Below are positions 1 to 35,500 of a DNA stretch of 64,000 nucleotides, in pieces (the first letter of the stretch is position 1; each line of letters opens with the position of its first letter). This stretch comes from an uncultured Ignavibacteria bacterium (GTDB lineage: Bacteria > Zixibacteria > MSB-5A5 > SM1-73), in the NCBI GenBank assembly GCA_964580215.1, contig CAZOJT010000011.1, positions 5,884 through 69,883 of the forward strand, read 5' to 3'. The translations under genes and the position numbers were made by a program. The notes under the pieces were generated by a model. That model made no database searches and was not told the origin of the DNA. It saw only the letters and a list, made by a program, of their open reading frames with translations.

Positions 1-431
1 GGAATCCTGAAGTTCTGTCCCATGGCTAATATGGTGATTCCCGGATAGGGCTTGTATCCCAAATAGACATAGTCGACTCCATTGACTTTTCCGTATTCTT
101 CAGCCACTTGGGCCACTACCTGTTCCACCATACCGGGACCGTTTTGATGTAAACAGCATAGCAAAAGTTTTACGTCTTTGGAAAAGCACTGCCTGGTTAT
201 GGCGTAAGACATCGGATGAAGCTCAGCCATGACCTCTGGAGCATAGTCTACCCCGATCATCAACACCTCTCCCGGCACCAGGCTCTCCACAAAATCATAT
301 ACACTTCTGGCCTCCGGGGTGACGTAGAGCGGAACCGCAAAAGACCAGATCGCGGTTACCACTACCACCAACCCTATCACCAGATAGACCCAGCGCCTAT
401 CTAAATTCATCATCCTTTCGTAAAAGGTCAT
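1..431 (-). CDS. 5' part (runs off window) of TM-anchored alpha/beta protein, paralog of 3122..3991 (module protein C2)
   Basis: Not in ORF track. Manual translation from ATG at 431 (SD GGAGGAG): MTFYERMMNLDRRWVYLVIGLVVVVTAIW...GVDYAPEVMAELHPM...DYVYLGY, aligning with IDRRIIF...SFDYDPGSMPELQPM...DYVNLGF of 3122..3991. Confidence 0.85.
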   Translation of the reverse strand, partial: MTFYERMMNLDRRWVYLVIGLVVVVTAIWSFAVPLYVTPEARSVYDFVESLVPGEVLMIGVDYAPEVMAELHPMSYAITRQCFSKDVKLLLCCLHQNGPGMVEQVVAQVAEEYGKVNGVDYVYLGYKPYPGITILAMGQNFRI

Positions 432-440
432 TTCTCCTCC

Positions 441-1070
441 TCAATCTCTTCCCATATAGCCTCTCTCAATTCCTAACATAATCTTTAAGGCGGTAGCAGT
501 CGCCCCCAGACCTACACCTAACCAGAAAGCCCTCTTGGCTGCCATGTTGGGCACCGTCAAGATAAAATTAACCAACCACTGATTTACAGCGGACAGGGGA
601 CCTAAGGGGACCAATCTCAACATGATTATTATTGCCGAAACAAGCAGGATAGTAGCCAAAACTGTTCGGGCCCGGAAGGCCCGGTAGGCGGCAGAGGCGA
701 TATAGAAAGCCAAAAGTGAGAACATGGCCGCCTGTATGGGAATGTAAATATATTCGAAGATGTCCATGAAAAGAGTGCCGTATTTGAGGCTATCCTGATA
801 GTGTGGAACCAAGCCAACGAACACCATGACGAACAGCCCCACCAGGGCCACCACGCTGTATCCCCAGCCTTCTGCTTTTTTCCTAACTTTGGTCACCATC
901 ATGTTGGTCAGGCTATACAAACCTAAAGCCATGGCAAAACAGCCGATCACCATGGTCCAATCCAAAGCCCACTCATATAACGTTTCAAACTCTTCTCGGG
1001 GGATAAAATACTGAATTAACATGAAGAAACCGACACCGGCGACAACAGCGATAGGTAACGTTCTGCGCAT
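441..1070 (-). CDS. Uncharacterised multi-pass membrane protein (module protein B2), paralog of 3998..4645
   Basis: About 5-6 hydrophobic segments; AMFSLLAFYIASAAYRAFRAR and C-terminal GIERGYMG shared with B1. Confidence 0.85.
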   Translation of the reverse strand: MRRTLPIAVVAGVGFFMLIQYFIPREEFETLYEWALDWTMVIGCFAMALGLYSLTNMMVTKVRKKAEGWGYSVVALVGLFVMVFVGLVPHYQDSLKYGTLFMDIFEYIYIPIQAAMFSLLAFYIASAAYRAFRARTVLATILLVSAIIIMLRLVPLGPLSAVNQWLVNFILTVPNMAAKRAFWLGVGLGATATALKIMLGIERGYMGRD

Positions 1071-1083
1071 TTTTATCTCCTAA

Positions 1084-2331
1084 TTAGAGCTGCACTGCAA
1101 ACAAGTTCAAGAAAAACTGGAAATTAAAAGTGGCTGCCAGAGCACCCAGGATTAAAGCGAGCATGACCACTGCCTTCCCCCAGTCCTGACCCTTCAAGGT
1201 TCCCAGAAGTGTCGGCTCCCTTCCCAGATAGGCTGAGGCCGCATAAAGTTCTTCCCCAATTAGAGTGTAATCTGTGGCTGCGACGAAGAAGGGAATCTGA
1301 GCGATCTCGTCCGTGCCGGAAATCTGGATAGAGCCGGCCAAAGAGCCGGTCTCAGCCAAAAGCAAGGACTCAGCATAAAACTTCCCCAGGTAAAAATTGG
1401 TGGCTGGCTTTTCCCTGAGCATTATCCCATTCACCCCGGCCACATAAGCAAACTGCATGGAGGTCAGATAATATATGTTCTCCTCTTTATACTGATCCGG
1501 TCTTCCTGCTTCCAAATAGGCCGCTCTGACCGTCTCCTGCGCCACTGCCATAACTATTGGATCACAGCAGGGAATCAAAATCGGAGTTTGATACTCTGCC
1601 ACCTTCTTGGCTACCCTGCTCAAAATCGTAAACGAAGCTATGGTAGCTATCATGTCTGCGCTGCCCAACCCTAAAATATATAGAATGGGCTTACCCATCT
1701 CCGTGGCTCTACCTATGGCGTCATCCACCGCCTCGATCCCGGCTAGAGGACGGATATAAAGCTTCTTCCCCTTCCGGGCCACAGTGATGAAAACAAGGCA
1801 GAAAGTGGAAAAGAGCAGCACGGCCACCACCACCGGGGTTTTGCCGGTGTGGTACCACTGGCCATAGGCATGAGCGGGCGGAGAGACCTCCGAATCAGAG
1901 AAAAGCCCATCGCCTCTTGCCCTGACCTTATAGTAGAAATCTTTGTGCGGGGGAAGATAGTTGGCGTCTTCTTTTTCCTTAGCCCCTTTGTCCTCGAAGA
2001 CGTTCTCTCCGGCAGGAGCCAGTCCTCGCACCTCGAATTCACCATCAGGGGAATCAGACCTTAATACCTCGTAGGACACCACGTTATTCCGGCCGGCTCC
2101 ATCATCTACAGAAAGCTTCCAGCTAACAGTGATGGAATGCCCGTTGTCATTCGGGGTGTCAAAGGCTTTAACTTCCGTGGGAGGTGCCGGAGGTTGGGCT
2201 AAAGAATCCTCCAAAACTTCAGCTTCTCCCTCTTCTTGAGCAAAAGAGACACAAAACCCTAAGAATAGAAGAGGAATTACAAGCAATAGAATTCGCAAAA
2301 ATTTGTTCCGGAAAACGCTTCTTTTTATCAT
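1084..2331 (-). CDS. Signal peptide + fibronectin type III + TM + DUF6754-like domain protein (module protein A2)
   Basis: FN3-like PAPPTEVKAFD...ITVSW...YEVLRS...YYKVRA; after the TM helix RPLAGIEAVDDAIGRATEMG...DYTLIGEELYAASAYL. Confidence 0.8.
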   Translation of the reverse strand: MIKRSVFRNKFLRILLLVIPLLFLGFCVSFAQEEGEAEVLEDSLAQPPAPPTEVKAFDTPNDNGHSITVSWKLSVDDGAGRNNVVSYEVLRSDSPDGEFEVRGLAPAGENVFEDKGAKEKEDANYLPPHKDFYYKVRARGDGLFSDSEVSPPAHAYGQWYHTGKTPVVVAVLLFSTFCLVFITVARKGKKLYIRPLAGIEAVDDAIGRATEMGKPILYILGLGSADMIATIASFTILSRVAKKVAEYQTPILIPCCDPIVMAVAQETVRAAYLEAGRPDQYKEENIYYLTSMQFAYVAGVNGIMLREKPATNFYLGKFYAESLLLAETGSLAGSIQISGTDEIAQIPFFVAATDYTLIGEELYAASAYLGREPTLLGTLKGQDWGKAVVMLALILGALAATFNFQFFLNLFAVQL

Positions 2332-2352
2332 CTTAGCTCCTTAACAAAACTG

Positions 2353-2431
2353 TCAACGGATGCAGCGGATTCAACGGATTTCATCTGCTTAATCCGTTGA
2401 CTTCATCCGCTCAATCCGTTCCATCCGTTGA
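2353..2431. repeat. Imperfect palindrome built from ~9-bp units (CAACGGATG/CAGCGGATT and their complements)
   Basis: gtcaacggatgcagcggattcaacggatt...aatccgttgacttcatccgctcaatccgttccatccgttga, intergenic. Confidence 0.75.
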
Positions 2432-2450
2432 TAGTCCTATAACCAACTCA

Positions 2451-3107
2451 TCAAATCAAACCCAGCCAATTGCTGAAAAGAAAATACATTCTACCGATTA
2501 AAAGCGACATACGGCTCATCACCGTATATCCGAATAGCGCTCCAAAGGTAATCATCAGAAACCAGATTCCCACCCGGGCGGCTCCTCCAAATGCACCTTT
2601 GTGTTCTTTGGAGAAGAAGAAGTAGATCAAACCGCAGAAGGTTCCCACCACTATCACGATGTTCCCGACGGTGGTGTGCAGATTTCCGCCGACAAACAAG
2701 GGCAAGATGGTCCCCTTCACCTGAATTATGCCGTTGCTCTGTAAGTAACGGGTGAACTGCAAACCGGCGGTGGTTCCCACCACGAAAGCTAAAGACCATC
2801 GGGATAACCAACCCACCTTGGGGAAAAGTCTTAGCAACATCAAAACCCCCAAAAAACCTCCTATAAGATATATCCAGTGATAATCTATCCTACCGTTTGT
2901 GACAAGCTCGGTATAAGCTAACGCCAGATTGTCCACTAATTTGGGCAAAAAGTACTGCCAGAAGATGACCACAAACCAGTAGCCGGCTGATACGCCTACA
3001 AACAGCGCCTCAGAGAATTTATAGAAGGGGTTATCTTTATATAGAAAGCTGAAAATACCTAAAGTCAGGATAGCACCGATCCACACTCCCACAACTTCTC
3101 CACTCAT
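2451..3107 (-). CDS. Uncharacterised multi-pass membrane protein (module protein D)
   Basis: About 6 hydrophobic segments; SFLYKDNPFYKFSEALFVGVSAGY and LMITFGALFGYTVMSRMSLLIGR; SD GGAGG. Confidence 0.85.
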   Translation of the reverse strand: MSGEVVGVWIGAILTLGIFSFLYKDNPFYKFSEALFVGVSAGYWFVVIFWQYFLPKLVDNLALAYTELVTNGRIDYHWIYLIGGFLGVLMLLRLFPKVGWLSRWSLAFVVGTTAGLQFTRYLQSNGIIQVKGTILPLFVGGNLHTTVGNIVIVVGTFCGLIYFFFSKEHKGAFGGAARVGIWFLMITFGALFGYTVMSRMSLLIGRMYFLFSNWLGLI

Positions 3108-3121
3108 CTTTCAACCTCCAG

Positions 3122-3991
3122 CTAAGACCTCTTCCTTTTCCTCAATGAGAAGAAAGCCAGATTACCTATTATGATAAACAAACAGATCACCGCATGGGCT
3201 ACGGCTTGAGAGAACATATATCTCACCGCTATTCCTGGTATTCCCAGGACAGTTTCATATTCAGCTCCACCCTTCATTCCTCCCAAAACTCCAGCCAGTT
3301 GTCCGGTCTGAACGTATGGATACATCGAAGGGGCTTGAACCGCGGTGTTGCCTGCCGCCAATTTAACATGAAAAACGTCCACTGCATATTGCACCCACTC
3401 CTGTGTTCCCGGATACCCGGCCGACAGACTATATATAAGATCTACGTTATCATAGTTTTTGACACCCTTCATCAGAGGAAGCTCAGAAAGAGGCGTCCCC
3501 TGACCATCTTTGGGATATGATTCCTCAAAACTATGTCCCATTCGATCGATCACCACCTCGTTGCCGGCGGTGAATCCTAAATTGACATAATCTATGCCAT
3601 ACTGCAGATTCTTAGCTTTTATGTCTTCATCCTTAAAGACTTCTTCTAAAGCCATGTTTGCCTGAAGCGGACCCTGGGGCCATAAGCCCATGATGATCAC
3701 CTTCAAATCCTTTCTAAAACAATGCCTGAAGAAGGCCTCAGCCATAGGTTGAAGTTCGGGCATGGAGCCGGGATCATAATCAAAGGAGACCAATACCTTG
3801 GAACCCGCGGGAAGTTCTTCGATGGCGTCATACACCCCTCGCACAATCGGAGTTACCGGTATATGCATAGATACTTTAAAAAACAAGGGCACGGCAATAG
3901 CTACGGCGATGAAAAGGAATATTATCCTTCGATCGATGCTTAAAAGCTTTTCCCAAAAGCTCTTCTCTTCTTGGTTGTTTTCCTGATTCAT
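3122..3991 (-). CDS. Membrane-anchored alpha/beta domain protein with N- and C-terminal TM helices (module protein C1)
   Basis: 289-aa ORF; TM RIIFLFIAVAIAVPLFF, soluble core with GGMKGGAEYE, C-terminal TM. Confidence 0.85.
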   Translation of the reverse strand: MNQENNQEEKSFWEKLLSIDRRIIFLFIAVAIAVPLFFKVSMHIPVTPIVRGVYDAIEELPAGSKVLVSFDYDPGSMPELQPMAEAFFRHCFRKDLKVIIMGLWPQGPLQANMALEEVFKDEDIKAKNLQYGIDYVNLGFTAGNEVVIDRMGHSFEESYPKDGQGTPLSELPLMKGVKNYDNVDLIYSLSAGYPGTQEWVQYAVDVFHVKLAAGNTAVQAPSMYPYVQTGQLAGVLGGMKGGAEYETVLGIPGIAVRYMFSQAVAHAVICLFIIIGNLAFFSLRKRKRS

Positions 3992-3997
3992 CTTTAT

Positions 3998-4645
3998 TTA
4001 ATCTCCTCCCATGTAAGTCCTCTCCAGTCCCAATATCACGCGCAGCGCTGAGGAAACCAGCCCCAGAGCTATGCCTATCATGATAGCCCTCTGTCCTGCC
4101 GTCTGGGGGAAATCCATGATCCAGTCTGCCGCATTTCCCAATCGATATCCTTCGGGAAGCCAGACGGTAATCCAGTCTCCGATGGGAACCCGACCCAACA
4201 TCAGCACAAAGGCTGCTACTAAAAGCATGGTGGCTTCCACATTTCTTGCCCGAAAAGCCCGATAGGAGGCTGAAGCGACAAAGAAAGCCAGAAGGGCGAA
4301 CATGGTGGCGGAAAGCGGATAATACACATGGATATAGAGATAGTAGAAGGGTGTGCCCACCTCTGAAAATGACCTCCCGCCGGAGAAGAACAGGCCAGGT
4401 ATGGTTATCACCAAAAATCCTAAAATTACTACTATCCCGAAGGGCCAATCCCTTTGTTTCTTATAAATCTTATCTGCATTGATTCTGAGCAGGTTCAAAA
4501 CCCCTAAATAGATGGCAAATGCGGCTATTATAAAAAACCAGTCTTCGAACATATCTTTCAATATGTTGAGAGGGGGAATAAAGTGGGCGATTATCATGGT
4601 GAGCCCCACCATGGCGGTCAAAACTAAGGGAACCTCTCTTCGCAT
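3998..4645 (-). CDS. Uncharacterised multi-pass membrane protein (module protein B1)
   Basis: ATMFALLAFFVASASYRAFRAR, C-terminal GLERTYMGGD; tight spacing with neighbours. Confidence 0.85.
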   Translation of the reverse strand: MRREVPLVLTAMVGLTMIIAHFIPPLNILKDMFEDWFFIIAAFAIYLGVLNLLRINADKIYKKQRDWPFGIVVILGFLVITIPGLFFSGGRSFSEVGTPFYYLYIHVYYPLSATMFALLAFFVASASYRAFRARNVEATMLLVAAFVLMLGRVPIGDWITVWLPEGYRLGNAADWIMDFPQTAGQRAIMIGIALGLVSSALRVILGLERTYMGGD

Positions 4646-4666
4646 TTTCCTCTCCTCTAATCCTCC

Positions 4667-5914
4667 TTAGAAAAGCTTTTCTGCTAAATTGGGAAGGTTC
4701 CATCCAAAAACTGAATTTAGGGTAAGCAAGACTACCCCTGCAAAAATGACCAAAAGGAAGATGAACTTGCCCACATCCTGTCCCTTGAGACTTCCCAAAA
4801 GCTTGGGGTCCTTGGAAAGATAGGCGGAAGCGGCAAAGAGCTCCTCGCCGATCAAAGTGTAATCACAACAGGCGACGAAGAACGGGAGCTGAGACGGCAT
4901 GGCGGTCCCGGCGATCTGAATAGCGCCAATGGAGTTGGCCGTTTCCGCCAGGATCAATGACTCCGCATAAAACTGCCCCTGAAGAAAAACAACCGCCGGT
5001 TTTTCCCTTATGAAGAGACCGTCCAGTGCAGCGGCGTAACCAAACTGATCATCGGTTAGGTAATAAACCATGTTGTCGTTGTAAGCATCCGGTCTTCCGG
5101 CGTTGAGGTATGCCTCTTTTACCGTCTCTCTGCAAGTGACCATGACTAAAGATCTTGAGACCGGCACCTCCAATTTGGTTTCATATTCAGCCGCCAGCTT
5201 GGCCACCCTTCCCAGAATGGTGACGCCGGCGATGGTCTGCATGCTGTCCATATCCATGATACCGGGTATAAAGATTATCTTTCGTCCCATCTCAGTCGCC
5301 CGTCCCACCGCATCATCCACCGCCTCCAGCCCGGCGATCTTACGGATAAAAAGCTCCTTGCCAGTCTTGGCGCTGTTTATGAAGTAAAAGATGGCAAACC
5401 CGATTATCAAAGCAAGGATAAACAGAGTCAACCTGCTTAAATCGAACCATTGAACCTTGGAAAAAGCCGGATTGCTCGGCAACGATAGGGATGTCCCTGC
5501 CAGTGAGATCACCTTGATTTTGTAAAAATATCTCACCTTATTTTTGGTATCACTGTCGGAAAATGAAGTTGCGCCAGGAGCAGTGTTTCCGATATGTTCG
5601 TAACCTTCATCTCTGTTTGTGGATCTGAGGATTTCGTATTCGGTCACATTGTTTGCTCCTTCTCCGTCGTCAGCCGATTTCTCCCAACTGATGGTGATAG
5701 CGCCCCCTTTGTCGTTGGGGATATCTTTGGCAGTCACGTTGGCGGGGGGAGCGGGAAGAGGGGCTTCTGCTTCCTCGACGGGTTCGCCCTCAACTTCAGA
5801 TGTCTCTTGTGCTTCAACCGGAAATGGTGTGAGCAGGAAAAGAATAGCAAGAAGAAATATCAAGAAGAAAAACGTCGATTTTGATTCAAAAAACGGGGTA
5901 TGTGTTTTAATCAT
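4667..5914 (-). CDS. Signal peptide + FN3 + TM + DUF6754-like domain protein (module protein A1)
   Basis: Signal ending VEA-Q; FN3 PAPPANVTAKD...ITISW...YEILRS; RKIAGLEAVDDAVGRATEMG...DYTLIGEELFAASAYL. Confidence 0.8.
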   Translation of the reverse strand: MIKTHTPFFESKSTFFFLIFLLAILFLLTPFPVEAQETSEVEGEPVEEAEAPLPAPPANVTAKDIPNDKGGAITISWEKSADDGEGANNVTEYEILRSTNRDEGYEHIGNTAPGATSFSDSDTKNKVRYFYKIKVISLAGTSLSLPSNPAFSKVQWFDLSRLTLFILALIIGFAIFYFINSAKTGKELFIRKIAGLEAVDDAVGRATEMGRKIIFIPGIMDMDSMQTIAGVTILGRVAKLAAEYETKLEVPVSRSLVMVTCRETVKEAYLNAGRPDAYNDNMVYYLTDDQFGYAAALDGLFIREKPAVVFLQGQFYAESLILAETANSIGAIQIAGTAMPSQLPFFVACCDYTLIGEELFAASAYLSKDPKLLGSLKGQDVGKFIFLLVIFAGVVLLTLNSVFGWNLPNLAEKLF

Positions 5915-6116
5915 GGCTTTTTAAAAAATAAAAAACCTCCGAAGATGGTTTACCTAAGAAGGTTCAATTTCAAGTAATTTCAAGACGGTTAACTGTTACA
6001 ACTTTATTTTTGATTTCAGCTTTGCCCGGCAAGCCTGAAATGATTTGTAGCATCATAGAGTTCTCGAACCAAACTTGAAAAGCTTCACACCAACTTTACT
6101 CGCCCCTAGATTTTTT

Positions 6117-6145
6117 AATTTACCACAAGGACTCAATTAAGTCAA
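6117..6145 (-). promoter_or_regulatory. Sigma70-type promoter for the A1-B1-C1-D-A2-B2-C2 operon
   Basis: TTGACT-17 bp-TAAATT on - strand. Confidence 0.6.
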
Positions 6146-6327
6146 GGAAAAAATTAGGGTTTGTCAACGCAAATTAAAAATGTCAGGTGCGAAGCATTCA
6201 TACGAATTTTTTGCAAATTTAAAATGTCAGTAATTTATGGTTATGAGCTCATTTTCGTGTAAAGCAAGCGATTTGAGGCATTTCCTTTTTTGATTCAAAT
6301 AAGACAAGCTTTCTATGATTACAAAAA

Positions 6328-6357
6328 GCCAGCACCTAACTTAAGTTAGGTGCTGGC
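6328..6357. repeat. Perfect 30-bp palindrome; related copy at 21225-21252
   Basis: gccagcacctaactt|aagttaggtgctggc. Confidence 0.8.
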
Positions 6358-6444
6358 GCTTATTTCCGCACATCATAAAATAGTTAGATTATTGCTATGT
6401 CGGCATAATGTTGGACCAACACACAACGGCAGATTTTTTCTGTT

Positions 6445-7572
6445 TTATTCCTCCAGCATCTCTACGTTAGCCCGTGGGATTATGGCTTTGGTTCCGTCTG
6501 CGAACTCCACCTCCAGAACCCTGGCAGATGATTCCGATTCTAACTTCTGCAGGGCTGGAGGGAGGCCACTCACCTTACCCAATCGTCCAAAATGGGGCTC
6601 GCGGATCACTCGCACCGGGTAGCCCTCGGTGAGTCCAACAGTCTCAAATTCCTCCACCTCCTTCTTTTTATGCACATCCCCTTCAAACGGAATCACCACC
6701 TCCGGACGGATAACCCCTGCTCGAATCTGAGTGGCTCCATTTATACAAGCCATCTTGCCTTCTTTTGATTTCAAGAGGGAAAACGTCTTCTCAGCCATGT
6801 TCATCTGTCCGAATCCTTCGGTGACCACCAGGGTTATTCCCAATTCCTCCGATCCGGTGATAGCTACACCCAAGTCGTATCCTAAGAAGTCTCTTAAGTC
6901 TTTGTCGTCGAATCCACCCACCACGATTCCCTTAGCACCCAGTCTTATGGCTTTTTTTATGGCATCTGCAGTGACCAACCCCCCCCCAATGACTACTTTA
7001 TCTTTGCACTCCTTCTCGATTAACTTGTCTGTCAACACTTCAGTACTATCTTTCACCACCACCTTGATCTCTCCATGCGTCTCACCTCCGATGCCGAAGA
7101 TACCTTGAATAAAGGATGCCCAGGTGGAAACCGCCACCCCTTCTCTCTCATATACCTCCATCACTTCCCCCTCCAGATATGCCTTGATCTCCACCGGGAT
7201 GGGATTCCCTCGGATCAAAACCTGTCCGGTGACCGAAGAGATGCTCTCCACGCTTCCTTCTGTTTTGGTTTTGCATTCTGAGGAGAAAAGCCCGAAGAAG
7301 CTTTTGCTCTTAGCAATAACCTCTCCATCTTTGACCTTTTCTCCCTCTTTTTTCAGCATATAATGCATTATGTCCTCTGGCGGGATACCCAAAATGTTAG
7401 CCACGTTGATCGGTTGCACGTTTCCCGGAAGCAGGGTTCGAGCCACTACCGTATCCGGCCTTACCTTGTCTCCAACCTTACTGAGAACGTCTCCCTTCAA
7501 TGGAAGTATTCTCTTCTTGGTTAAAAGAACCTTTTCCGTTACTTTAAGTCCCGGCGTATATGCATGACCCAT
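6445..7572 (-). CDS. Conserved hypothetical soluble protein: barrel-sandwich-hybrid-like segment, central alpha/beta domain, C-terminal KOW/SH3-like domain
   Basis: GEVIAKSK...EGSVESIS; KVVIGGGLVTADAIKKA..LGAKGIVVGG; GYPVRVIREPHFGRLGKV; SD AAGGAG. Confidence 0.75.
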   Translation of the reverse strand: MGHAYTPGLKVTEKVLLTKKRILPLKGDVLSKVGDKVRPDTVVARTLLPGNVQPINVANILGIPPEDIMHYMLKKEGEKVKDGEVIAKSKSFFGLFSSECKTKTEGSVESISSVTGQVLIRGNPIPVEIKAYLEGEVMEVYEREGVAVSTWASFIQGIFGIGGETHGEIKVVVKDSTEVLTDKLIEKECKDKVVIGGGLVTADAIKKAIRLGAKGIVVGGFDDKDLRDFLGYDLGVAITGSEELGITLVVTEGFGQMNMAEKTFSLLKSKEGKMACINGATQIRAGVIRPEVVIPFEGDVHKKKEVEEFETVGLTEGYPVRVIREPHFGRLGKVSGLPPALQKLESESSARVLEVEFADGTKAIIPRANVEMLEE

Positions 7573-7592
7573 TTAAATAGCTCCTTATTTTT

Positions 7593-8156
7593 TCACTCAA
7601 AGAATTTATGTTTCTCCAAGAAGTTGTATTTCTCCTTTATCAGATCCTGTGGAAATTTTGGTTTTAGATCACTCACTTTTCTTAATACCATCTGCTTGTG
7701 TTTTATATCATTGTCACACAGACTCTTGGTTTTTTCAAAAACATAGTGTATCGTTGCCAAAAGCTCCAAATCCGCAGGTTCTTCAGAACCAAATGTTTCA
7801 ATAATCTTGTTAATATCTTTTATATTTTTCTGTACAAAACTTTCTGCATCTTTTTCACATCCTTGAGTTGATTTACTCTCGATACGGATGATTTCGTATC
7901 CCATCTTCTTCGGATCCTCTTGGATTTTAATCAAACCAAAAAGTTGCATCATATCTAAGTCCTGTTTCAACGAATCTGAATATGGTCCAAAGTGATAAAA
8001 ATAGAATTCATACTGAAGGGGTAATTCTGAATATGTTTTAAGAAAATAAAACACCTTCTGAATAACGACTTTACCAAAATAGTGCCTTTTTTCACCAAGC
8101 TTGTTTATCACATAACTTATTATTCCGTAACGAGCAAAATCATCCATTGCTACCAT
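7593..8156 (-). CDS. YwgA / SocA-Panacea-like winged-helix protein
   Basis: GKVVIQKVFYFLK...FYFYHFGPYSDSL and LELLATIHY motifs. Confidence 0.65.
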   Translation of the reverse strand: MVAMDDFARYGIISYVINKLGEKRHYFGKVVIQKVFYFLKTYSELPLQYEFYFYHFGPYSDSLKQDLDMMQLFGLIKIQEDPKKMGYEIIRIESKSTQGCEKDAESFVQKNIKDINKIIETFGSEEPADLELLATIHYVFEKTKSLCDNDIKHKQMVLRKVSDLKPKFPQDLIKEKYNFLEKHKFFE

Positions 8157-8181
8157 AGCTGCACCTCCTTCGAGTTGGAAT

Positions 8182-9489
8182 CTATGATTCCTTCCAAGAC
8201 ATTCCTCTGACGTATTCTTTTATCTCGTTCATAATTGATGATTCTTGACAATAGAGCCTTAGTATATCGAATTTTTTAAGGTTCCTAAGGAGATCGGTTT
8301 TGTAACTAATACTGGAGTAGTGTGGATCTGAACCAGCATCTTCGGTTTTGTAAATAAAGTCTTCTTCCTCTTCCAAAAACTTGTTCGGCGCCTCGCTTGC
8401 TCTATCTATTCTGAAGTCTATATCCTTAAATTTTGGTACACCTTTCAGTTTCTCTACATTCTCATAAAATCTTCTCTTTTCCCATCGTGCTGTGGCCTCA
8501 TTTCTCAACTCAACGTAGTGAATAGGCTTATAGTGTTTACGCTCGATAACAACCCGGGCTTTGTCACCTTTCTCACCCTCTTTTTTCATAGCTTCTTTCA
8601 TTAAATGAACAACGTAGTAATCATCGTAGATCAAATATTTTTGTAGGTTTTCAGGATATTTGTTATCAGGGAGAACTGATTTCAAGAAATCTGTTAGATG
8701 AAAATCATATGCTCTTCTAATATCATGAAAATACACCTGCAAAAACATGTAGTATCTTGCCAGAATAAGCCCTTCAGCGGCCAATATGCCACCCTCTTCG
8801 ATTCCTAATACCGGTTGTTGCCTTAATTCTGCTATTAGTAAAGTATTGGTTAAACGGTCTATATCGAAACGACCATAATGCACCCCAGCGTAATGGGAGT
8901 CTCGCCAGAGATAATCCATTTTGTCAACATCTAAGGGACCGTCAATTATTTGTTGCAATAAGGGGTCAACGCCGATGTTTCTTGAAACGAAATCAGCTAC
9001 TTTTTCTGTCGTTATATCCATCTCTTTGATTTCCTGCGATTCGAAAATCTGCTGAAGCTCATGATTTTCTTTAATAATTCTGGCTGTGTATTGTTTATGA
9101 CTTAAACCCGGTCTAAAAAGCTCTTTTTCTCCGACGTGTGAAAAGGCTGGATGTCCAATATCGTGGAGAAGTGCCACGAGTCGGATTAAAGCTCGTTTCC
9201 TGTCTACTTGTTCTCTATCTTGAGTCCAATCTACAATTCTGTCTCCTTTCCCGTCTTTCTCTACTACTGTATTAAAAACTCTATCAGCTAATTCCATGGT
9301 TCCAAGCGAATGAGCAAATCGTGTATGGTCTGCTCCATGATATACTAAATAGGTTGTTCCCAATTGCTTTATCCTTCTCAGTCTTTGAAAAACGGAGGTG
9401 TCGATTATTTTCCGCTCTATGTCATAAACTTTTATAAACCCATGAATCGGGTCCCTGAAAATATGATATTTGCCAAAATAGTCACCCAT
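8182..9489 (-). CDS. HD-domain dNTP triphosphohydrolase-like protein (SAMHD1/YwfO-like)
   Basis: RDPIHG, FQRLRRIKQLG, HTRFAHSLG, ALLHDIGH.AFSH, LDVDKMDYLWRDS. Confidence 0.9.
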   Translation of the reverse strand: MGDYFGKYHIFRDPIHGFIKVYDIERKIIDTSVFQRLRRIKQLGTTYLVYHGADHTRFAHSLGTMELADRVFNTVVEKDGKGDRIVDWTQDREQVDRKRALIRLVALLHDIGHPAFSHVGEKELFRPGLSHKQYTARIIKENHELQQIFESQEIKEMDITTEKVADFVSRNIGVDPLLQQIIDGPLDVDKMDYLWRDSHYAGVHYGRFDIDRLTNTLLIAELRQQPVLGIEEGGILAAEGLILARYYMFLQVYFHDIRRAYDFHLTDFLKSVLPDNKYPENLQKYLIYDDYYVVHLMKEAMKKEGEKGDKARVVIERKHYKPIHYVELRNEATARWEKRRFYENVEKLKGVPKFKDIDFRIDRASEAPNKFLEEEEDFIYKTEDAGSDPHYSSISYKTDLLRNLKKFDILRLYCQESSIMNEIKEYVRGMSWKES

Positions 9490-9503
9490 GAGTTGCGCTC
9501 ACC

Positions 9504-9532
9504 AATATACTGCACTTATGTGCACTTGTCAA
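9504..9532 (-). promoter_or_regulatory. Sigma70 promoter with palindromic operator in the spacer
   Basis: TTGACA-17 bp-TATATT; TGCAC-N4-GTGCA at 9511-9524; ATG 14 nt after the -10, no SD. Confidence 0.65.
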
Positions 9533-9624
9533 GAGAAAAGTTCAAAATTTTTTGCCGGTTCGGTTCTGCCTATTCTTCTCTCCGCTATATTACAATGAAC
9601 TGATAAACGGCCGTGTGCGTTGTT

Positions 9625-11469
9625 TCACAATCTCTCCAACGCTTCTTGGGGGTAGATGTCCAGCGCAATCATCCACTCTTTCAGTTTTTGCACTCTGACT
9701 TTGTGATCAGTCGGCAGATGGAATGGTCTTCCCCGGCAATCGATGATGATTCCGTTCGCTCCTCCATGAATCGTCGTCTCCTCCTTGTTTCCCTTTCCTC
9801 CACCCACATCGAAACCTCGATGCGGCTCCAGGGCTGCCTTACAGGTTAATGGAACTCCGGTCTTTTCATCCAATCCCAGGGGTATTCTTCTCATCTCTCC
9901 ATATTTTACCGAGCTTTCTTCGGTCTTCCCGTCAGGCATGATAAATTTGTAGTCCAAAATCTCCCTTTCCTCTTTGGATTCACCCACCGGTGCGATGCAG
10001 GTGCCCAGATGAATCAAACAATCTTTGTCAAACACCTGAGTGGCGGCTTTGGGGTGAACCGTGGACAGGACACCCAACTGGGGCATCATGAAGATGGAGT
10101 CAACTGCTAAACGGGTTATCCCTTCCGGCAGGAAACCATCGATCAGCATCAAAGCAGCCTGTTGTCTTCGGGGAGCATGAGAGAGCACCCCTCCGGAACC
10201 GACGAGTATGCTCAAACTCATCATGTTAACCAGGGTCTGGCCACCTAACTCCTGCTCAAAGGCATCTCCAATGGTTCTCTGTTGTTGAACTCCTTTCAAA
10301 GCGGTGGCAAAGGACTTATGCTGGATGAATGCCAGCCTTAACGCCTCTTTGGCTATCGCCTGTTCGAAGATCAACTCCTCCATCATCTGAGGGATGGTAG
10401 TCGGTCGGATCATCTTGTTTTTCACCCGGTTTCTCAGATCTCTTTCGTCCATGTGAAAGGGGACCCAACGCATCACATTCTCCAAGCCCGTTTCAGCAAA
10501 AACGTTGGAGACCGAGTAGCTCATTCCGAGATTGGCGCTAACCGTGCGGTTGAAGACTCCTTGAAAAACGGAGAATATATCGGTGGTCGCTCCTCCGATG
10601 TCCACCCCGACCGCCTCGATTCCCTCCTGGTCGGCAATGGTCTTGATGATAAGCCCCACCGCTCCGGGAGTGGGCATGATGGGTGCATCGGTCCAGGTCA
10701 TCAACTTGCGGTAACCGGGAGCCTGTGCCATCACGTGTTCCATGAAAAGATCGTGGATCTTTTCACGAGCCGGCAGGAGATTTTCCCTTTCCAGCACCGG
10801 CCTTAGGTTATCCACGATGTCTAAATCAACTTTGTCCTGCAGAGTCTCTTTGATCGCTTCTCTGGCATCCACGTTGCCAGCGTAGATGATGGGGAGTTTA
10901 TATCCAATCCCCAATCTCGGCTTGGGATCAGCGGCAGAAATCAATTCAGCTATTTCCACCACGTGAGTAGTTGTGCCACCGTCGATGCCACCTGATAAGA
11001 GGATCATATCGGGTCTTAGATGTCTGATTCTTTGAATCTGCTGATGGGGAAGCCTTTTGTCGTTGGATGCGATCACGTCCATGACGATGGCGCCTGCTCC
11101 CAGAGCGGCTCGTTCGGCCGATTCGGCGGTCATGCTTCTGACCACCCCCGCCACCATCATCTGCAGACCCCCGCCGGCTGAGGAGGTGGAAATATAGAGG
11201 TCAGTGCCAATGTTATCCTTAGCGGGTGAGATGATCTTGCCATCCTCATCTAACAGCTTTCTTCCGGTGAGATCTTCCACCTCGCCTACGGCATTTAAAA
11301 CACCCATGGTGACGTCCTCAAAGGGAGTCTCCACCGTGGTGGGCGCTTCTCCCCTCACGATCAATCGATATTCCTCCCCCTTCTTCTCAATCAAGATCGC
11401 TTTGGTGGTGGTGCTGCCGCAATCAGTAGCTAAAATCACATTAATGTCTTCAGGTTTTAGGTCTTTCAT
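9625..11469 (-). CDS. GlmL/MutL-like (glutamate mutase L family) ASKHA-fold ATPase
   Basis: Phosphate-1 DCGSTTTK, phosphate-2 VDIGGATTD, adenosine GSGGVLSH; SSAGGGLQM and IIIDCRGRP family motifs. Confidence 0.85.
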   Translation of the reverse strand: MKDLKPEDINVILATDCGSTTTKAILIEKKGEEYRLIVRGEAPTTVETPFEDVTMGVLNAVGEVEDLTGRKLLDEDGKIISPAKDNIGTDLYISTSSAGGGLQMMVAGVVRSMTAESAERAALGAGAIVMDVIASNDKRLPHQQIQRIRHLRPDMILLSGGIDGGTTTHVVEIAELISAADPKPRLGIGYKLPIIYAGNVDAREAIKETLQDKVDLDIVDNLRPVLERENLLPAREKIHDLFMEHVMAQAPGYRKLMTWTDAPIMPTPGAVGLIIKTIADQEGIEAVGVDIGGATTDIFSVFQGVFNRTVSANLGMSYSVSNVFAETGLENVMRWVPFHMDERDLRNRVKNKMIRPTTIPQMMEELIFEQAIAKEALRLAFIQHKSFATALKGVQQQRTIGDAFEQELGGQTLVNMMSLSILVGSGGVLSHAPRRQQAALMLIDGFLPEGITRLAVDSIFMMPQLGVLSTVHPKAATQVFDKDCLIHLGTCIAPVGESKEEREILDYKFIMPDGKTEESSVKYGEMRRIPLGLDEKTGVPLTCKAALEPHRGFDVGGGKGNKEETTIHGGANGIIIDCRGRPFHLPTDHKVRVQKLKEWMIALDIYPQEALERL

Positions 11470-11513: not shown

Positions 11514-11740
11514 GAGGTCTTTGGGATTGTATCCCGAAACCGCGTAGCGGAGCCTTTACGGCTCCGCACAGAGGCGTAAAGCCTCTGCTACGCGGGAATA
11601 ACAGTTTTGTAGGTCGAGCATGGCGAAGTCTGCTCGACATTCTTATGTTTGTCAGGTCTTTTGACGCTGGGATACAATCCCAGCGTCCTCCTAAATGCAA
11701 ATTATATAGAGGTCTTCGGGATTGTATCCCGAAGGCCAGA
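11514..11740. repeat. REP cluster at the 3' side of the RAYT gene
   Basis: GGGATTGTATCCC hairpins (three copies) and GTAG-GTCGAGCA-loop-TGCTCGAC at 11609-11638. Confidence 0.8.
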
Positions 11741-12292
11741 GAAATCTAATTCATCTACCTCCAAAGGGGATTCCTTCTGACATACGAAGTTCCTTGCACT
11801 CGAAAAATAATAATCCTCTGGGTCTTTCGCCAAGCCCTTTCTTACTGGATTGTAATGAATGTACTGAATCTTTTGATTCAAAAACTCTTGCGTAAAGATA
11901 TTTTCATCAAAGAATCCTTCGTCCCACACTTTGTAAATTTGACGTTTGTAGGACTCTGCGCTTCTGGAAAAGAAGGCCAAAAGATTTTCATAGTTCAGTC
12001 GTTTCAGCTTCTCAGTGATTCTTTTTGAGGTAAACTTCTTGAAATCTCTCATCAAATCTGATATGGTTTGGTTTTTGCCTTGATATTCCAAAGGAAGAAC
12101 AATCAAATGTAGATGGTCAGGCATGATGACATAAGAAAACAGCTTCATGCGTGCTTCTTTTCTAAGGAAGTTCAAACTTTTGAGCACTATCCCAGTAATC
12201 TCAGGATTCGATAATATTTTCTTTTTTCCTACAACGGTTGTTGTTACGAAGTACAAGTGACCTGGAATATGATATGATTTGTATTTGGACAT
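11702..12292 (-). mobile_element. REP-associated tyrosine transposase (RAYT, Y1/HUH)
   Basis: LYFVTTT, YVIMPDHLHLI (HUH), FKKFTS, QKIQYIHYNPV (catalytic Tyr), YYFSSA. Confidence 0.9.
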
Positions 12293-12424: not shown

Positions 12425-13063
12425 TTACTCCATTAATGCCTGAGCAATAGCGTTGCCAAACTCCTTGGCGGCTGGGGGTCCGCTGGCGGTGATGATGTTT
12501 CCATCTCTCTGAATGCCCTCACCGGTGTATTCTGCCCCTTTATCCTTCAACTTCTGTGCCTCAGACCGGTATACGGTAGCCTTTTTGCCTGACAGAATTC
12601 CCGCATTAGCCAATGTCACCGGTGCAATGCAAATGGCACCTACAATCTTGTTCTGCTTTACCGCTTCATTCAGCATAGAATGGATGGAGAAATCTTCCCA
12701 ATACACACTTGCCCCGGTGCCGCCTATTAGTATGATAGCATCCCAGTCTTCTGGCTTTATGTCGCTTATCAACATATCCGGCTTGACTTCGGCGCCCAAC
12801 ATTCCCCCGGCGGTCTCCAGAGATGCACAGGCTACTTTAACCTCGGCTCCTTTTTCTGTTAAGACGGCTTTTGGCTCTAGAAGCTCCTCGTCCCGGAAGT
12901 TTTCAGGGGCTATGATTATCACCACCTTTTTCCCAGCCAGAGCCTTTTCTTCTTTTGCCACCTCCTCTTTGGGAATCTGAACCTCCTCCTTTTTTTCCTT
13001 GCATCCCCCAAACAGCATTCCCATCAACATGAGCATGCATATTGCTAAAAAGACCTTCTTCAT
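12425..13063 (-). CDS. DJ-1/PfpI family protein with putative lipoprotein signal
   Basis: FRDEEL, ILIGGTGA, GAICIAP (nucleophilic Cys); N-terminus MKKVFLAICMLMLMGMLFGGC. Confidence 0.85.
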   Translation of the reverse strand: MKKVFLAICMLMLMGMLFGGCKEKKEEVQIPKEEVAKEEKALAGKKVVIIIAPENFRDEELLEPKAVLTEKGAEVKVACASLETAGGMLGAEVKPDMLISDIKPEDWDAIILIGGTGASVYWEDFSIHSMLNEAVKQNKIVGAICIAPVTLANAGILSGKKATVYRSEAQKLKDKGAEYTGEGIQRDGNIITASGPPAAKEFGNAIAQALME

Positions 13064-13085: not shown

Positions 13086-13514
13086 TTATTTCCCTATGAG
13101 AATATATCGTATCTTCTCCTTTAAGTTTTTTTCCCTCCACTGTCTTTTTCTTTGGGATTTTCTTTCCTGCTTTAAGGTCTTTTCTTTTTCTTGTGCCTCG
13201 GAGTCAACCGCCTCTATTCTTTGCAAAAGCCTTTCCACCGTCCCTCTATCTTCCATCATGTTTCTGACCTCATCGTAATCTTTCCAGGAGAAGACCGCCT
13301 GAACGAACGGCTCAAAGAAAGCCATCATCTGACTGCCCACATAATTTAAAGGCTTGACCGATTCCAAAAAAAGTATGGCTGGAACTGACATCTTCCAGTA
13401 GACCACCTTCTGAGCGATCTTGGTGAGAATCTCCTCCTGGTGAGGTGTGAGTTCTTTTTTATCTCCTCCCCTCTGACCCATGGAAAACATGTCCCTGAGG
13501 AAGGCCACAAACAA
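13086..13514 (-). CDS. Conserved hypothetical protein
   Basis: VPAILFLESVKPLNYVGSQ; operon-like spacing. Confidence 0.7.
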   Translation of the reverse strand: MFVAFLRDMFSMGQRGGDKKELTPHQEEILTKIAQKVVYWKMSVPAILFLESVKPLNYVGSQMMAFFEPFVQAVFSWKDYDEVRNMMEDRGTVERLLQRIEAVDSEAQEKEKTLKQERKSQRKRQWREKNLKEKIRYILIGK

Positions 13515-13533: not shown

Positions 13534-13968
13534 TTAAATGCGTTCTTTTCTCTGTATGTTTGATTTTACGAAATCAACCACCTGATCTTTGTTCTGGTTA
13601 AATCTTACATAAATCCCCCTGAAGTTTTCCAGCCGGGAAGGTTTTTCAAAGGGGGAAAGCAAAACCCCGTTTTTGTCCACATAAAATGAACGAAATGCGT
13701 CCCACTCTCTCTCCCGCGTGGTGAGAAAGAATCTTACTCTGACCTTCTTCTGGTCGAGCTCATAATGGGTCGGCAGAAAGAAGGATGATAAGGATCCCAG
13801 TATGATGACCACGGAAAGGACAGTGAGCAAGAGACTGGAGGTGGTCAGATATACCACCAACCATACGACGAACAAAAACAGGATGACCAAAATCGAGATT
13901 AAAGTCCTTTTCCTCACCGGATGTGACGACCACTTAAGCACCGTGTTTTCACTCATCTTGTCATTCAT
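13534..13968 (-). CDS. Hypothetical membrane protein (2 TM + soluble C-terminus)
   Basis: ORF with two hydrophobic helices; SPFEKPSRLENFRG. Confidence 0.7.
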   Translation of the reverse strand: MNDKMSENTVLKWSSHPVRKRTLISILVILFLFVVWLVVYLTTSSLLLTVLSVVIILGSLSSFFLPTHYELDQKKVRVRFFLTTREREWDAFRSFYVDKNGVLLSPFEKPSRLENFRGIYVRFNQNKDQVVDFVKSNIQRKERI

Positions 13969-32599: not shown

Positions 32600-35500
32600 A
32601 TGACTAAGAAGCTATTTGTTTTCGTGGTTTTAGTTCTGGGTGGCATCCACGCTTTTACGCAAATCGCACAGGCAAGCCCCGACCCTATACCCTTCACTGC
32701 GCCGGTCAACTATTGGACTGGAGATCCGGTTTCCGTTTTCTGCGCGGACTTGGATGGTGATGGAGACTTAGACATCGCTGTCGCAAATTTTGATCGTAAC
32801 CATGTGTCCGTTCTGAAGAACAACGGAGATGGTACCTTTCAGGATCCAGTCAACTACGCAACAGCGGGCAATCCTAGCTCCGTTTTCTGTAAAGATCTCG
32901 ATGGCGACGGAGATCAGGACTTGGCCGTTGCAAATGCAGGGAGCAAGAATATCTCCATCTTGAAGAACAATGGAAATGGAATCTTTCAACTTGACGGTAA
33001 CTACGCGATAGCGGGAAATCTAGGAGATCATCCCCAGAACATCTTCTGTGCTGATTTGGACAATGATGGCGATCCGGACTTAGCGGTATCAAATCGGACT
33101 ACCGATTATGTTTCTATATTAAAGAACAACGGGGATGGGACTTTTCAAACTAAAGTTGACTATGCTGTAGGAGGCCGTCCTTATTCTGTTTTTTGCGGTG
33201 ACCTGGATGGAGATTCAGATTTTGACCTAGCCGTAGCAAATGGTTATGATGACAATGTGTCCATCTTAAAGAACAATGGAGACGGCACTTTTCAACCCTG
33301 GGTCCATTGCCCGGTAGGAATTGCGCCTCAAGCCGTTTACGGCGCCGATCTCGATGGTGATGGCGATGTGGACTTAGCCGTAGCCAATTGGACTACTGAC
33401 AATGTCTCGATCTTAAAGAACAATGGCAATGCAACTTTCCAACCTGCAGTCCACTATGGAGCGGGAGATGCTCCGCAAGCTGTTTTCTGCGCGGATCTGG
33501 ATGGGGATTTGCATCCGGAAGTAGTTGTGGCAAACAGATATAGTGGCAATGTTTCTATATTAAAGAACAACGGAGACGGCACCTTTCAAGCAGTAGACAA
33601 CTACCTAACAGGACCTGAGGCTCACTCTGTTTTCTGTGCAGACCTGAACGGCGATGGGTATTTGGACTTAGCTGTTGGAAATGCCGGTACCAACGAAGTC
33701 TCTATTCTGATTAACTTGACCATGCCCGCTCCGCCAGATGAATGGGAGACGCTTGAATTTTCCGGAAGAACTTGGCACGTCAAGAAGGCTGAGACACCTG
33801 TGGGGCCTGGCAAGAATTATTTTACGGCCAGAAAGAGTGACATCTGGGTTGATGAAGCCCAGGACGAACTTCACTTGAGAATACTTTACCGACACGGCAG
33901 ATGGTATTGCTCCGAGGTTTATTCGGATGAATCGTTTGGATATGGAGAATACGTCTTCGTCTTCTATTTAGCAACCGAGGCAATTGAGGATCCGCCACCC
34001 AATGCCGTCCTAGGTTTATTTACCTGGGATACCACAACGTGTGTATCAGACGCGAACAGCGAAATAGACATAGAAGTCTCAAAATGGGGAGATAATAGTG
34101 CTGATAGCATTCTTCTATACGCTGTGCAACCCACAGGGGATGCCATCTACACGGAACGTTTCAGAAAGTTTCCCATGGACCTCAATGACGACTATTCAAC
34201 CCATGTATTCCAGTGGACCCCTTACAGGGTTCAGTTCTGGAGCTATCATGGTCAGGATTATCCAACGAACGATCTAATTCCGGAGTGGGATTTTTTTGAC
34301 CCCGAAACCTGTCGCTCCAAGAGTGATGAGGAATGTACCTCAGAGTGCATAGACATACCGAAACCCGGTCCTGCCACGAATGTGCGTATGAACCTATGGC
34401 TTTGTGACTGCGATGGCGACAAAATCGGAGATCCGCTTTCGAATGATACGAGCGAAGTATTTGAAGTCATCATAAAGGCATTTGAGTTTGTGGAAGCTCC
34501 AATTCTGAAGTTTGTGAAGGGTTCACCAGTTGACGTGAGAATAACCACGCCAGATAGCAATATAATTGACAGAGAAGTCAACGAAATCCCTGGCGGGAGA
34601 TATGAAGTGTATGAGTTAACCCCTGGTGATAGTGGGGCAACTGTTACGATCCCTTATCCGCCAGCGGGCGTCTATTATGTTGAAGTAATACCGTGGCCGA
34701 CCGCAGACCCAACCGCCACATACTCTGTCATCGCAGTATTTGAGAATGATACCACTATCCTGGCCCAGGACGTTCCGCTTGCAGCCGCACCTGATTATCC
34801 TTATAGATTCTGGACAATCCCGATTGGCTCAATTTCAGGTAGTGTTTCGGACTCCTTGGACGGACTATTGGGAGTCACAATTGATCTATTCGATAGCAAC
34901 GGCACATTGGCTCAGTTTGCCATCACAGACACCTCTGGATTCTTCGAATTCGACAGCGTGGACGTCGGCGACTATAACATTTCAATAGTTACACCGTTGG
35001 GCTACGTGGCAGATTTTGAGTCAAGACCAATAACGGTGACCATGAACGCAGATAGCGTTGTCAACTTCACGCTCCATGCCCTGGAAATCGTGCCTTCGCA
35101 AAGAAGCATGGGCTACTGGAAACATCAGGTGAATGTCCATTTGTCTGGAAAAGGTGGCGCACAAGAAGGCCTGGCTGAGATGTCAAATTACATGGGCCTT
35201 ATCGGAGAACACTTCAACAACAATCTGGCCAATCCCATAACTATATTCGAAGTACCTCAGCCAGCATCCCAGACTGACAGCCTTGAGGTTCTCCAAGACC
35301 TTCTCACAGTCAGAGGAAATGCCGGCATGAATGCCAAGGCAAGACAACACCTAATTGCAGTGTTGCTCAACGTTGTGTCGCTGAAACTCCATCAAACAAC
35401 TCCAATTAGCGAGGACAATGCCTCTGTATCCCAAGCCATAACATACTGCCACCAGCTCATCGCAGATTCAGACCCAGCCAATGATGAGACTGCAAAAGAC

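Follow-up and report, generated by a model that had tools for sequence, protein, structure and literature searches.

Among the described proteins closest to the system reported here are GlmL, the accessory protein of glutamate mutase, whose annotated role is that of a reactivase, for which EutA and DdrAB offer analogues, and the actin-fold ATPases PilM (with PilNO), GspL and FtsA, which in envelope machines dock on bitopic membrane proteins. A 64,000-nucleotide stretch from an uncultured Ignavibacteria bacterium (GTDB Zixibacteria, MSB-5A5, SM1-73; assembly GCA_964580215.1, contig CAZOJT010000011.1, positions 5,884 to 69,883; hereafter the window) encodes within its first 14 kb a GlmL-like ATPase, a soluble 375-residue protein (p375), four types of membrane protein (A, B, C and D) and two small membrane-associated proteins (F6 and F9), with closest homologues in Candidatus Zixiibacteriota. 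The best explanation of this locus is that it holds one copy of an ancient, multi-phylum, two-module gene system, in which the ATPase and p375 form one module and ABCD the other. There is good support for a functional link of the ATPase with the membrane cassettes; the function itself we infer.

The ATPase gene (11469..9625, minus strand, as are all features of the locus given below; 614 amino acids) encodes a clear member of the Pfam MutL family (PF13941), scoring 430.3 bits (1.1e-128) across profile positions 1-450 of 450 against a gathering cut-off of 27 bits. Its MutL/GlmL-like core (residues 12-484) is followed by a clade-specific, beta-rich C-terminal extension of ∼130 residues. The phosphate-1 (DCGSTTTK), phosphate-2 (DIGGATTD) and adenosine (GSGG) motifs are intact and are invariant in 21 orthologues, whose alignment has a mean column identity of 73%; by these motifs the protein belongs to the ASKHA (acetate and sugar kinase/Hsc70/actin; actin-fold) superfamily, with hydrolysis itself predicted. 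Conservation is high over large distances, identity to the window ATPase between phyla being 58-91% in a tblastn comparison. The narrower models of the GlmL group are nevertheless all missed: NCBIfam NF040745 (GlmL, equivalog; 234.5 bits versus a cut-off of 475), NF040744 (GlmL-related ornithine degradation protein Or-4; 223.2 versus 600) and the subfamily model TIGR01319 (GlmL family; 174.1 versus 204.05). Pfam also returns weak Hydantoinase_A and Hydant_A_N matches, and sequence and profile searches recover no relative of the ATPase among PDB sequences.

Genomic context sets this ATPase apart from its named relatives as well. Subunits of B12-dependent mutases (glmE/glmS, oraE/oraS, kamD/kamE) are encoded alongside it neither in the window nor in 160 related loci, which comprise 80 genome loci centred on A, each with up to 10 kb of flanking sequence, and 80 ATPase-centred metagenome loci, and no mutase family recurs in these loci. 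Within the window, Pfam searches with 20 of the 25 open reading frames (ORFs) of at least 200 amino acids beyond 14 kb and the precomputed Pfam annotation of 1-21 kb show no B12 mutase, and the B12 motif DxHxxG...SxL...GG occurs in no open reading stretch of at least 90 codons. A link to a B12 mutase was rejected on these grounds. The ATPase misses every curated cut-off and, in the window and the 160 loci, has none of the mutase context that defines GlmL and Or-4 proteins. It is a member of the Pfam MutL family and, on this evidence, not a B12-mutase accessory factor, and would at most resemble an accessory or engine ATPase in the way it works.

A constant partner of the ATPase is p375 (7572..6445). 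The window protein has no Pfam match; PF13375 (RnfC_N) or PF25984 is found in some of its homologues, and the Joint Genome Institute names some of them ‘NusG’. Its layout comprises an N-terminal barrel-sandwich hybrid, a beta-rich middle, a Rossmann-like alpha/beta domain and a C-terminal KOW/Tudor-like barrel. The AlphaFold2 model (mean predicted local distance difference test, pLDDT, 66) shows a beta-rich N-terminal half, the Rossmann-like domain and a small C-terminal barrel, and Foldseek matches this model only to KOW/Tudor-like folds, at the small barrel; a PDB sequence search finds no relative. The family is large, with at least 8000 candidates in the homologue search and at least 2909 clusters at 50% identity in the profile search (E-value up to 0.001). 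Of the 51 ATPase-centred loci that extend at least 2.5 kb downstream, 44 have the p375 gene after the ATPase gene. That the two proteins are one unit is shown most strongly by two fusions of ∼1000 residues (P0254 and P0371), found among the top p375 profile matches, which join ATPase and p375 in the order of the separate genes; over their first 600 residues, they share 63% and 48% identity with the window ATPase, and the two fusions arose independently. Two loci (L113 and L121) encode tandem ATPase-p375 pairs, the second pair being divergent (ATPase 57% and p375 41% identical to the query proteins, with a longer p375 of 461 residues in L113), so the cytoplasmic module can itself be duplicated. 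Ignavibacteria-type loci (L012, L013, L020, L055, L090-L093) encode an extra secreted protein of ∼260 residues, with no Pfam match, between ATPase and p375.

The membrane genes form a tandemly repeated four-gene cassette, present in the window as A1-B1-C1-D1 (5914..2451), A2-B2 (2331..441) and the start of C2 (431..1). A1 (5914..4667) and A2 (2331..1084), both of 415 amino acids and 47% identical in BLASTP, are full-length members of the DUF6754 family (PF20539; 407 bits, 2.6e-122, and 387 bits, 3.5e-116, versus a cut-off of 27 bits). Topology and Pfam analysis give both the same architecture of signal peptide, FN3 domain, transmembrane helix (TM), DUF6754 alpha/beta domain and C-terminal TM. 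The FN3 assignment is corroborated by a profile match to a multi-FN3 titin chain in the PDB (3.1e-14) and by Foldseek, whose top matches to the AlphaFold2 model of A (pLDDT 64; second half of DUF6754 poor) are all FN3 (E ∼4e-6) and include nothing else. By the positive-inside rule, FN3 would be periplasmic and DUF6754 cytoplasmic. The homologue search with A returned at least 8000 candidates.

Of the other subunits, B1 (4645..3998; 215 amino acids) has about six predicted TMs and an invariant ASxxYRAFRAR motif in a predicted cytoplasmic loop, and its paralogue B2 (1070..441; 209 amino acids) is 40% identical to it. C1 (3991..3122; 289 amino acids) has an N-in TM, an alpha/beta domain of ∼220 residues that the predicted topology places in the periplasm, and a C-terminal TM with a basic tail. 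D1 (3107..2451; 218 amino acids) again has about six predicted TMs, with invariant YKDNPFYK and FFSKEH motifs. C2 is cut at position 1 and is 281 amino acids long on contigs with identical neighbor proteins; on such contigs (gene calls of L084/L085) the array continues through the rest of C2, D2 and a third cassette, A3-B3-C3-D3, to a ThiI-like gene, and A3 lacks the FN3 domain.

Database searches place B, C and D in no described family. With 39-42 orthologues of each and E-values up to 1, Pfam gives no consistent match beyond compositional TM similarity, and the PDB gives none, the FN3 domain being the only part of the ATPase, p375, A-D and F6 that matched there. Sub-threshold TMD0_ABC similarity appears in 21 of 42 B proteins (best E 8.1e-05), ABC2_membrane_3 similarity in two, and window B1 scores 11 bits against a 27-bit cut-off; we read these hits as probable compositional similarity between TMs. 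No ABC-related match was seen for C or D, and ABC_tran matched no protein of the cluster in Pfam or NCBIfam. Profile-profile comparison of A with C, of B with D, and of p375 with each of A, C and the ATPase uncovered no hidden paralogy, nor did B or D show internal repeats. Identity with RnfC/NqrA, considered for the barrel-sandwich hybrid of p375 and the sizes of the membrane subunits, was rejected, as the same Pfam searches with B, C and D gave no Rnf/Nqr match.

Genomic neighborhood analysis reveals that these genes keep each other's company in many little-studied phyla of bacteria. The A-centred loci come from Zixibacteria, Ignavibacteria, WOR-3, Eisenbacteria, Gemmatimonadota, Stahlbacteria, Coatesbacteria, Fermentibacteria/Aegiribacteria, Poribacteria, Acidobacteriota, Planctomycetota (Gimesia, Isosphaeraceae, Phycisphaerae) and ‘Deltaproteobacteria’, and nearly all 80 keep the order A-B-C-D, in one (49 loci), two (12) or three (19) cassettes. 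The ATPase and/or p375 is encoded in 29 of them, and within 10 kb in nine of the 24 whose array is flanked by 5 kb or more on either side. Seen from the ATPase, A-D genes lie within 10 kb in half of the loci with at least 6 kb on both sides (11/22). Among the A-centred phyla, those with both modules adjacent include Zixibacteria, Ignavibacteria, Fermentibacteria/Aegiribacteria, Coatesbacteria, Acidobacteriota and Planctomycetota. Gene orders differ by lineage, with at least four arrangements of the two modules: F9-F6-ATPase-p375-ABCD; a compact co-directional seven-gene run, ATPase-p375-F6-A-B-C-D (L141, L150, L154, L157, L160, L165); ABCD-F6-ATPase-p375-ABCD (L098); and (ABCD)n divergent from ATPase-x-p375 (L122, L127, L132). 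All-against-all ORF clustering of the A-centred loci found no other family as recurrent, besides F6 (12 loci) and F9 (6 loci), which stand just upstream of the ATPase, and the ATPase-centred loci likewise hold no other family that recurs to a similar degree. The four genes ABCD make up one fixed unit, and ATPase-p375, with F6 and sometimes F9, is a second; the frequency with which the two adjoin is far above chance, and their order varies from phylum to phylum.

The conserved system extends upstream of the ATPase to F6 (13508..13086; ∼140 amino acids) and F9 (13968..13534; 144 amino acids), which are part of it. F6, with a conserved hydrophobic/amphipathic core (PAILFLES-KPLxFxGSQ) and a charged tail, is one of the two commonest neighbors of the ATPase (55 of 76 ATPase-centred loci) and lies either immediately 5' of the ATPase gene or between the p375 gene and A. 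In several lineages other than this one it abuts or overlaps the ATPase gene, with direct abutment in L005, L066, L071, L073 and L080; neither Pfam nor the PDB gives a match. The F9 family is found directly upstream of F6 in six genome loci and several metagenome loci and has no Pfam family. In F9, one hydrophobic stretch (23-41) exceeds the hydropathy threshold, and reading of the sequence suggests a second TM and a PH-like soluble domain. Both proteins would probably tether the ATPase-p375 unit to the membrane.

Transcription in the window runs through F9, F6, a DJ-1/PfpI gene, a Y1 transposase gene, the ATPase, an HD phosphohydrolase, a YwgA-like protein and p375, and then, after a gap of 530 nucleotides (6444..5915), through the membrane array. 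Spacing inside the array is tight (21, 6 and 14 nucleotides in cassette 1; 119 between cassettes; then 13 and 9). In the gap, p375 is followed by a strong predicted intrinsic terminator (6357..6328; 13-bp stem with 8 G-C pairs, then a T-run), and a promoter scan places a candidate promoter at 6145..6117 (TTGACT, 17 nucleotides, TG-n-TAAATT). Its CTTGAC...TGGTAAATT block is the sole invariant block in an intergenic alignment of five Zixibacteria loci, and Rfam detects no riboswitch or known RNA element in the gap. The terminator and conserved promoter between p375 and A1 suggest that the ABCD array has its own promoter in this lineage, and that the system here is transcribed as at least two predicted units.

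Four genes interspersed in this copy are insertions outside the system. The DJ-1/PfpI gene (13063..12425; precomputed Pfam PF01965), whose product has an N-terminal hydrophobic/lipoprotein-like signal, and the Y1 (IS200/REP-type) transposase-like gene (12292..11702; precomputed Pfam PF01797, Y1_Tnp) separate F6 from the ATPase here and are absent at these positions in other loci. The HD phosphohydrolase (9489..8182; 435 amino acids; YwfO/dGTPase-like, with PF01966 and PF19276) and the YwgA/DarG-C-terminal-like protein (8156..7593; 187 amino acids) are of the YwfO/YwgA pair type, an HD plus HD_assoc_2 protein followed by a small YwgA-like one. The former matches dGTPase in PADLOC (4.5e-11), scores far under the NCBIfam dGTPase cut-off, has a cluster member named ‘HD superfamily phosphohydrolase’ and is preceded by a promoter-like site (9532..9504; 11/12 match). 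The latter matches DarG in NCBIfam (5e-15, across DarG residues 175-320) and PADLOC (5.7e-17) and has a cluster member named ‘YwgA’. Because the pair is absent from all 160 related loci, it could be a defense-type or toxin-antitoxin-type insertion.

An earlier sequence-only reading of positions 1-11469 had proposed an orphan ATPase-driven membrane system, and much of its description holds. ORF and gene calls find its ORFs co-oriented where it put them, including the 614-residue ATPase with intact actin-fold motifs and the 375-residue protein; A has the signal, FN3, TM and alpha/beta anatomy it described, to which the C-terminal TM is to be added; the cluster does run off the left edge; and no B12-binding mutase subunit lies in the window. 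Its four types of membrane protein exist, in tandem cassettes, and its operon-tight spacing applies inside the cassettes (6-21 nucleotides, 119 between them) but not to the 530 nucleotides before A1. The parts it listed are real genes, but the list omitted the repeated cassettes, F6, F9 and both insertions. The Foldseek comparison it called for, run on the p375 and A models, returned the KOW/Tudor-like and FN3 folds reported above and nothing else.

Other neighbors recur less often. In 15 of the 80 ATPase-centred loci (L087, L099, L102, L133 and 11 others), (F9-)F6-ATPase is immediately preceded by the glycine cleavage genes gcvT-gcvH-gcvPA-gcvPB, with Pfam identities confirmed on the L087 copies; lineage synteny and a functional link are both possible. 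GcvH and the p375 N-terminus are both lipoyl/barrel-sandwich-type folds. The cdsA gene is found near the ATPase in 14 of these 80 loci. Tol-Pal genes (tolQ, tolR, tolA-like, tolB, pal-like, cpoB-like) or exbB-exbD-tonB adjoin the system in 21 of the 160 loci (for example L090 and L092; L015, L021, L022 and L030; L063, L071 and L080), some of which have a CarboxypepD_reg-Plug-TonB-dependent-receptor gene immediately after D; this adjacency hints at an envelope role, with a signal that is modest and phylogenetically clustered. In WOR-3 loci, D is followed by a DUF4388 protein, and the next gene appears roadblock-like and has no Pfam match.

The reading that we prefer, at a probability of roughly 0.4, is that ATPase-p375 is a shared engine that docks on A and drives ABCD for envelope-directed transport or remodeling. 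The cytoplasmic module would be the GlmL-clade ASKHA ATPase and p375 acting as one physical unit, and the inner-membrane module a four-subunit ABCD complex that would reach from cytoplasm to periplasm, each genome having one to three versions of it that are old paralogues. Its polytopic core would consist of B and D, C would contribute a periplasmic alpha/beta domain, and A would supply the highly conserved cytoplasmic DUF6754 domain and, usually, a periplasmic FN3 domain. The engine would dock on DUF6754, the only large and extremely conserved cytoplasmic domain of the complex; ATP binding and hydrolysis would then drive a conformational change in the B/D core, and its relay to the periplasmic domains would perform the transport or remodeling. 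One engine could in this way serve several paralogous membrane units, as a shared ATPase does for several ECF (energy-coupling factor) or ABC (ATP-binding cassette) transporters. A stronger claim, which we put forward as speculative and think unlikely, is that ABCD with ATPase-p375-F6-F9 constitutes an unrecognised class of envelope machine, widespread in the FCB (Fibrobacteres-Chlorobi-Bacteroidetes) and PVC (Planctomycetes-Verrucomicrobia-Chlamydiae) groups, Acidobacteriota and many candidate phyla, in which transport or mechanical work at the inner membrane, across which it acts, is powered directly by an ASKHA ATPase and not by one of the P-loop, AAA+, P-type or rotary kind, with one engine for up to three paralogous units. 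The sequence-only reading had the ATPase serving a membrane complex and not a mutase. The association is borne out, as the ATPase goes with p375 and A-D and with no mutase, and its driving of a transporter, sensor or modifier stays at the level of inference. As to the outcomes that it named as contrary, the genes do co-occur in other genomes, in several phyla and in at least four orders; no mutase tracks with the ATPase in the window or the 160 loci; and no characterised complex of these proteins appears in Pfam, NCBIfam, PDB sequences or the papers searched.

Several observations weigh against a driven complex. The modules do not lie within 10 kb of each other in about half of the well-flanked loci, and many lineages, including WOR-3, Gemmatimonadota, Eisenbacteria and Poribacteria, have ABCD with no ATPase module nearby. 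Some loci hold F6-ATPase without p375 or ABCD nearby, and others ATPase-p375 without ABCD within 10 kb, so the modules can be dispersed in a genome. In the window itself, the terminator and the separate conserved promoter split them. We know of no primary transporter with an ASKHA ATPase, and the known relatives of this ATPase family carry annotations as enzymes or accessory factors. The analysis found no substrate, outer-membrane partner or transport-type motif for the system, and the models of p375 and A are of only moderate confidence (pLDDT 64-66).

Part of this evidence would suit a chaperone or reactivase, in which ATPase-p375 would not power ABCD in its working cycle but would use ATP to assemble, repair or reload it, for instance by cofactor or subunit exchange at DUF6754: the sole detectable relatives of the ATPase are the GlmL and Or-4 accessory proteins, one ATPase module goes with up to three cassettes, and modules that are often unlinked and separately transcribed are what a maintenance factor would lead one to expect. 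This role, drawn by analogy, appears improbable, since A-D show no cofactor-binding motif and the window no B12 motif, the ATPase, p375 and DUF6754 are conserved to a degree unusual in an accessory factor, and the reactivase activity of GlmL is itself an annotation. The weak hydantoinase matches would instead suit a shared pathway, with ATPase-p375 as a soluble ATP-dependent enzyme of the kinase, carboxylase or ligase type, like the hydantoinase/oxoprolinase relatives, and ABCD as a membrane enzyme or secondary transporter of that envelope or metabolic pathway, importing, exporting or further processing its substrate or product. The Rossmann-like and barrel-sandwich-hybrid domains of p375, both typical of enzymes, and the frequent metabolic neighbors (gcvT-H-PA-PB in 15/80 loci, cdsA in 14/80) fit such a scheme. 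We hold it to be doubtful all the same, for the analysis revealed neither a catalytic motif nor a ligand, lineage synteny may account for the gcv and cdsA links, and F6 and F9, partners of membrane type, are tightly placed with the ATPase.

The extreme conservation of the ATPase across phyla is, in general experience, typical of filament formers, and with the tolQ-tolR-tolA-tolB-pal-cpoB or exbB-exbD-tonB genes adjoining the system it could speak for an ATPase that polymerises and organises or positions ABCD in the envelope, possibly together with Tol-Pal. We think this quite improbable: there is no sign of polymerisation, the GlmL and hydantoinase relatives are not known to form filaments, and the Tol/Ton adjacency covers just 13% of loci in phylogenetic clusters. 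Finally, modules that stand apart in roughly every second locus and form separate transcription units in the window might be mere neighbors by inherited synteny, with an ATPase that serves a B12 mutase or another enzyme elsewhere; the mutase search covered the window and the 160 loci, leaving the rest of the genome as a place for one. Inherited synteny does not, however, explain an adjacency that recurs in distant phyla in rearranged orders and orientations, and the ATPase has no mutase beside it in any locus covered and misses all NCBIfam GlmL/Or-4 cut-offs. The absence of any functional link is accordingly disfavored and very hard to credit.

Elsewhere in the window, a BsoBI-type restriction endonuclease gene (PF09194, 4e-149) beside a DNA methylase gene (55164-57565) looks like a type II restriction-modification system. 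A Schlafen/AlbA_2-domain protein of 461 amino acids (40709-42094) has a weak PADLOC PDC-S50 match. A large FG-GAP-repeat protein (32600-35896) carries a Por_Secre_tail domain, of the type that sorts proteins for type IX secretion, which indicates this pathway as a predicted trait of the organism. Of the ORFs of at least 200 amino acids beyond 14 kb, 22 of 25 lie on the minus strand, like all cluster genes, and 29 of 32 two-kb bins show negative GC skew, with the cumulative skew falling steadily to -2.83 at the window end. The strand bias and the steady skew are consistent with the window lying in one replichore.

The system matters first for what it leaves unlabeled. Six of its eight conserved families (A, B, C, D, ATPase, p375, F6 and F9) have no Pfam family, solved relative or literature, and the remaining two carry only a DUF label or the borrowed name ‘glutamate mutase L’, which on these ATPases in public databases is probably misleading. 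Yet its proteins are among the most conserved in these genomes, as the ATPase exemplifies, and the breadth of this linked, multi-component membrane system, which spans Zixibacteria, Ignavibacteria, Planctomycetota, Acidobacteriota and further phyla, suggests that something is missing from the envelope or membrane biology of the phyla dominant in sediments and soils. Should the ATPase indeed drive the complex, it would represent an energy-coupling principle new to membrane machines.

Comparison with known systems yields partial likenesses. GlmL/MutL and Or-4 share with the ATPase the PF13941 family, the ASKHA fold and intact nucleotide-binding motifs; in contrast to them, the ATPase scores under their cut-offs and has p375 and F6 as constant partners, often with ABCD, in place of mutase genes, and its ∼130-residue C-terminal extension is lacking in GlmL. 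The likeness to PilM-PilNO, GspL and FtsA, an analogy from general knowledge, lies in the gene of a cytoplasmic ASKHA protein standing next to genes of bitopic membrane proteins that have periplasmic domains. Sequence relation to these proteins exists only at the superfamily level; the partners here include two polytopic proteins and the soluble p375, and no pilus or secretin genes are present. RnfC/NqrA resemble p375 in the N-terminal barrel-sandwich hybrid and, in some homologues, PF13375, and the sizes of B, C and D loosely recall NqrD, NqrE and NqrC; however, no subunit has an Rnf-Nqr, FMN-binding or Fe-S match in Pfam or a redox motif, and A is without a counterpart. Modular ECF/ABC transporters offer the parallel of one cytoplasmic ATPase module for up to three paralogous membrane cassettes, but the system has no P-loop/ABC domain and its membrane subunits are unrelated to ECF/ABC components in Pfam. 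The family to which A1 and A2 fully belong, DUF6754, is itself a domain of unknown function. Nothing in Pfam, NCBIfam, PADLOC (searched with the ATPase and p375 only), PDB sequences or the papers searched describes the ensemble, and the literature search found no relevant paper on DUF6754 (PF20539), PF13941, TIGR01319 or GlmL-like proteins, its one hit being an unrelated study of the radical SAM enzyme ThiC. Because the ATPase misses the GlmL/Or-4 thresholds and the ensemble matches no database or literature description, we rate the system, with a putative function and an adjacency of its two modules that is not universal, as lying outside the known kinds.

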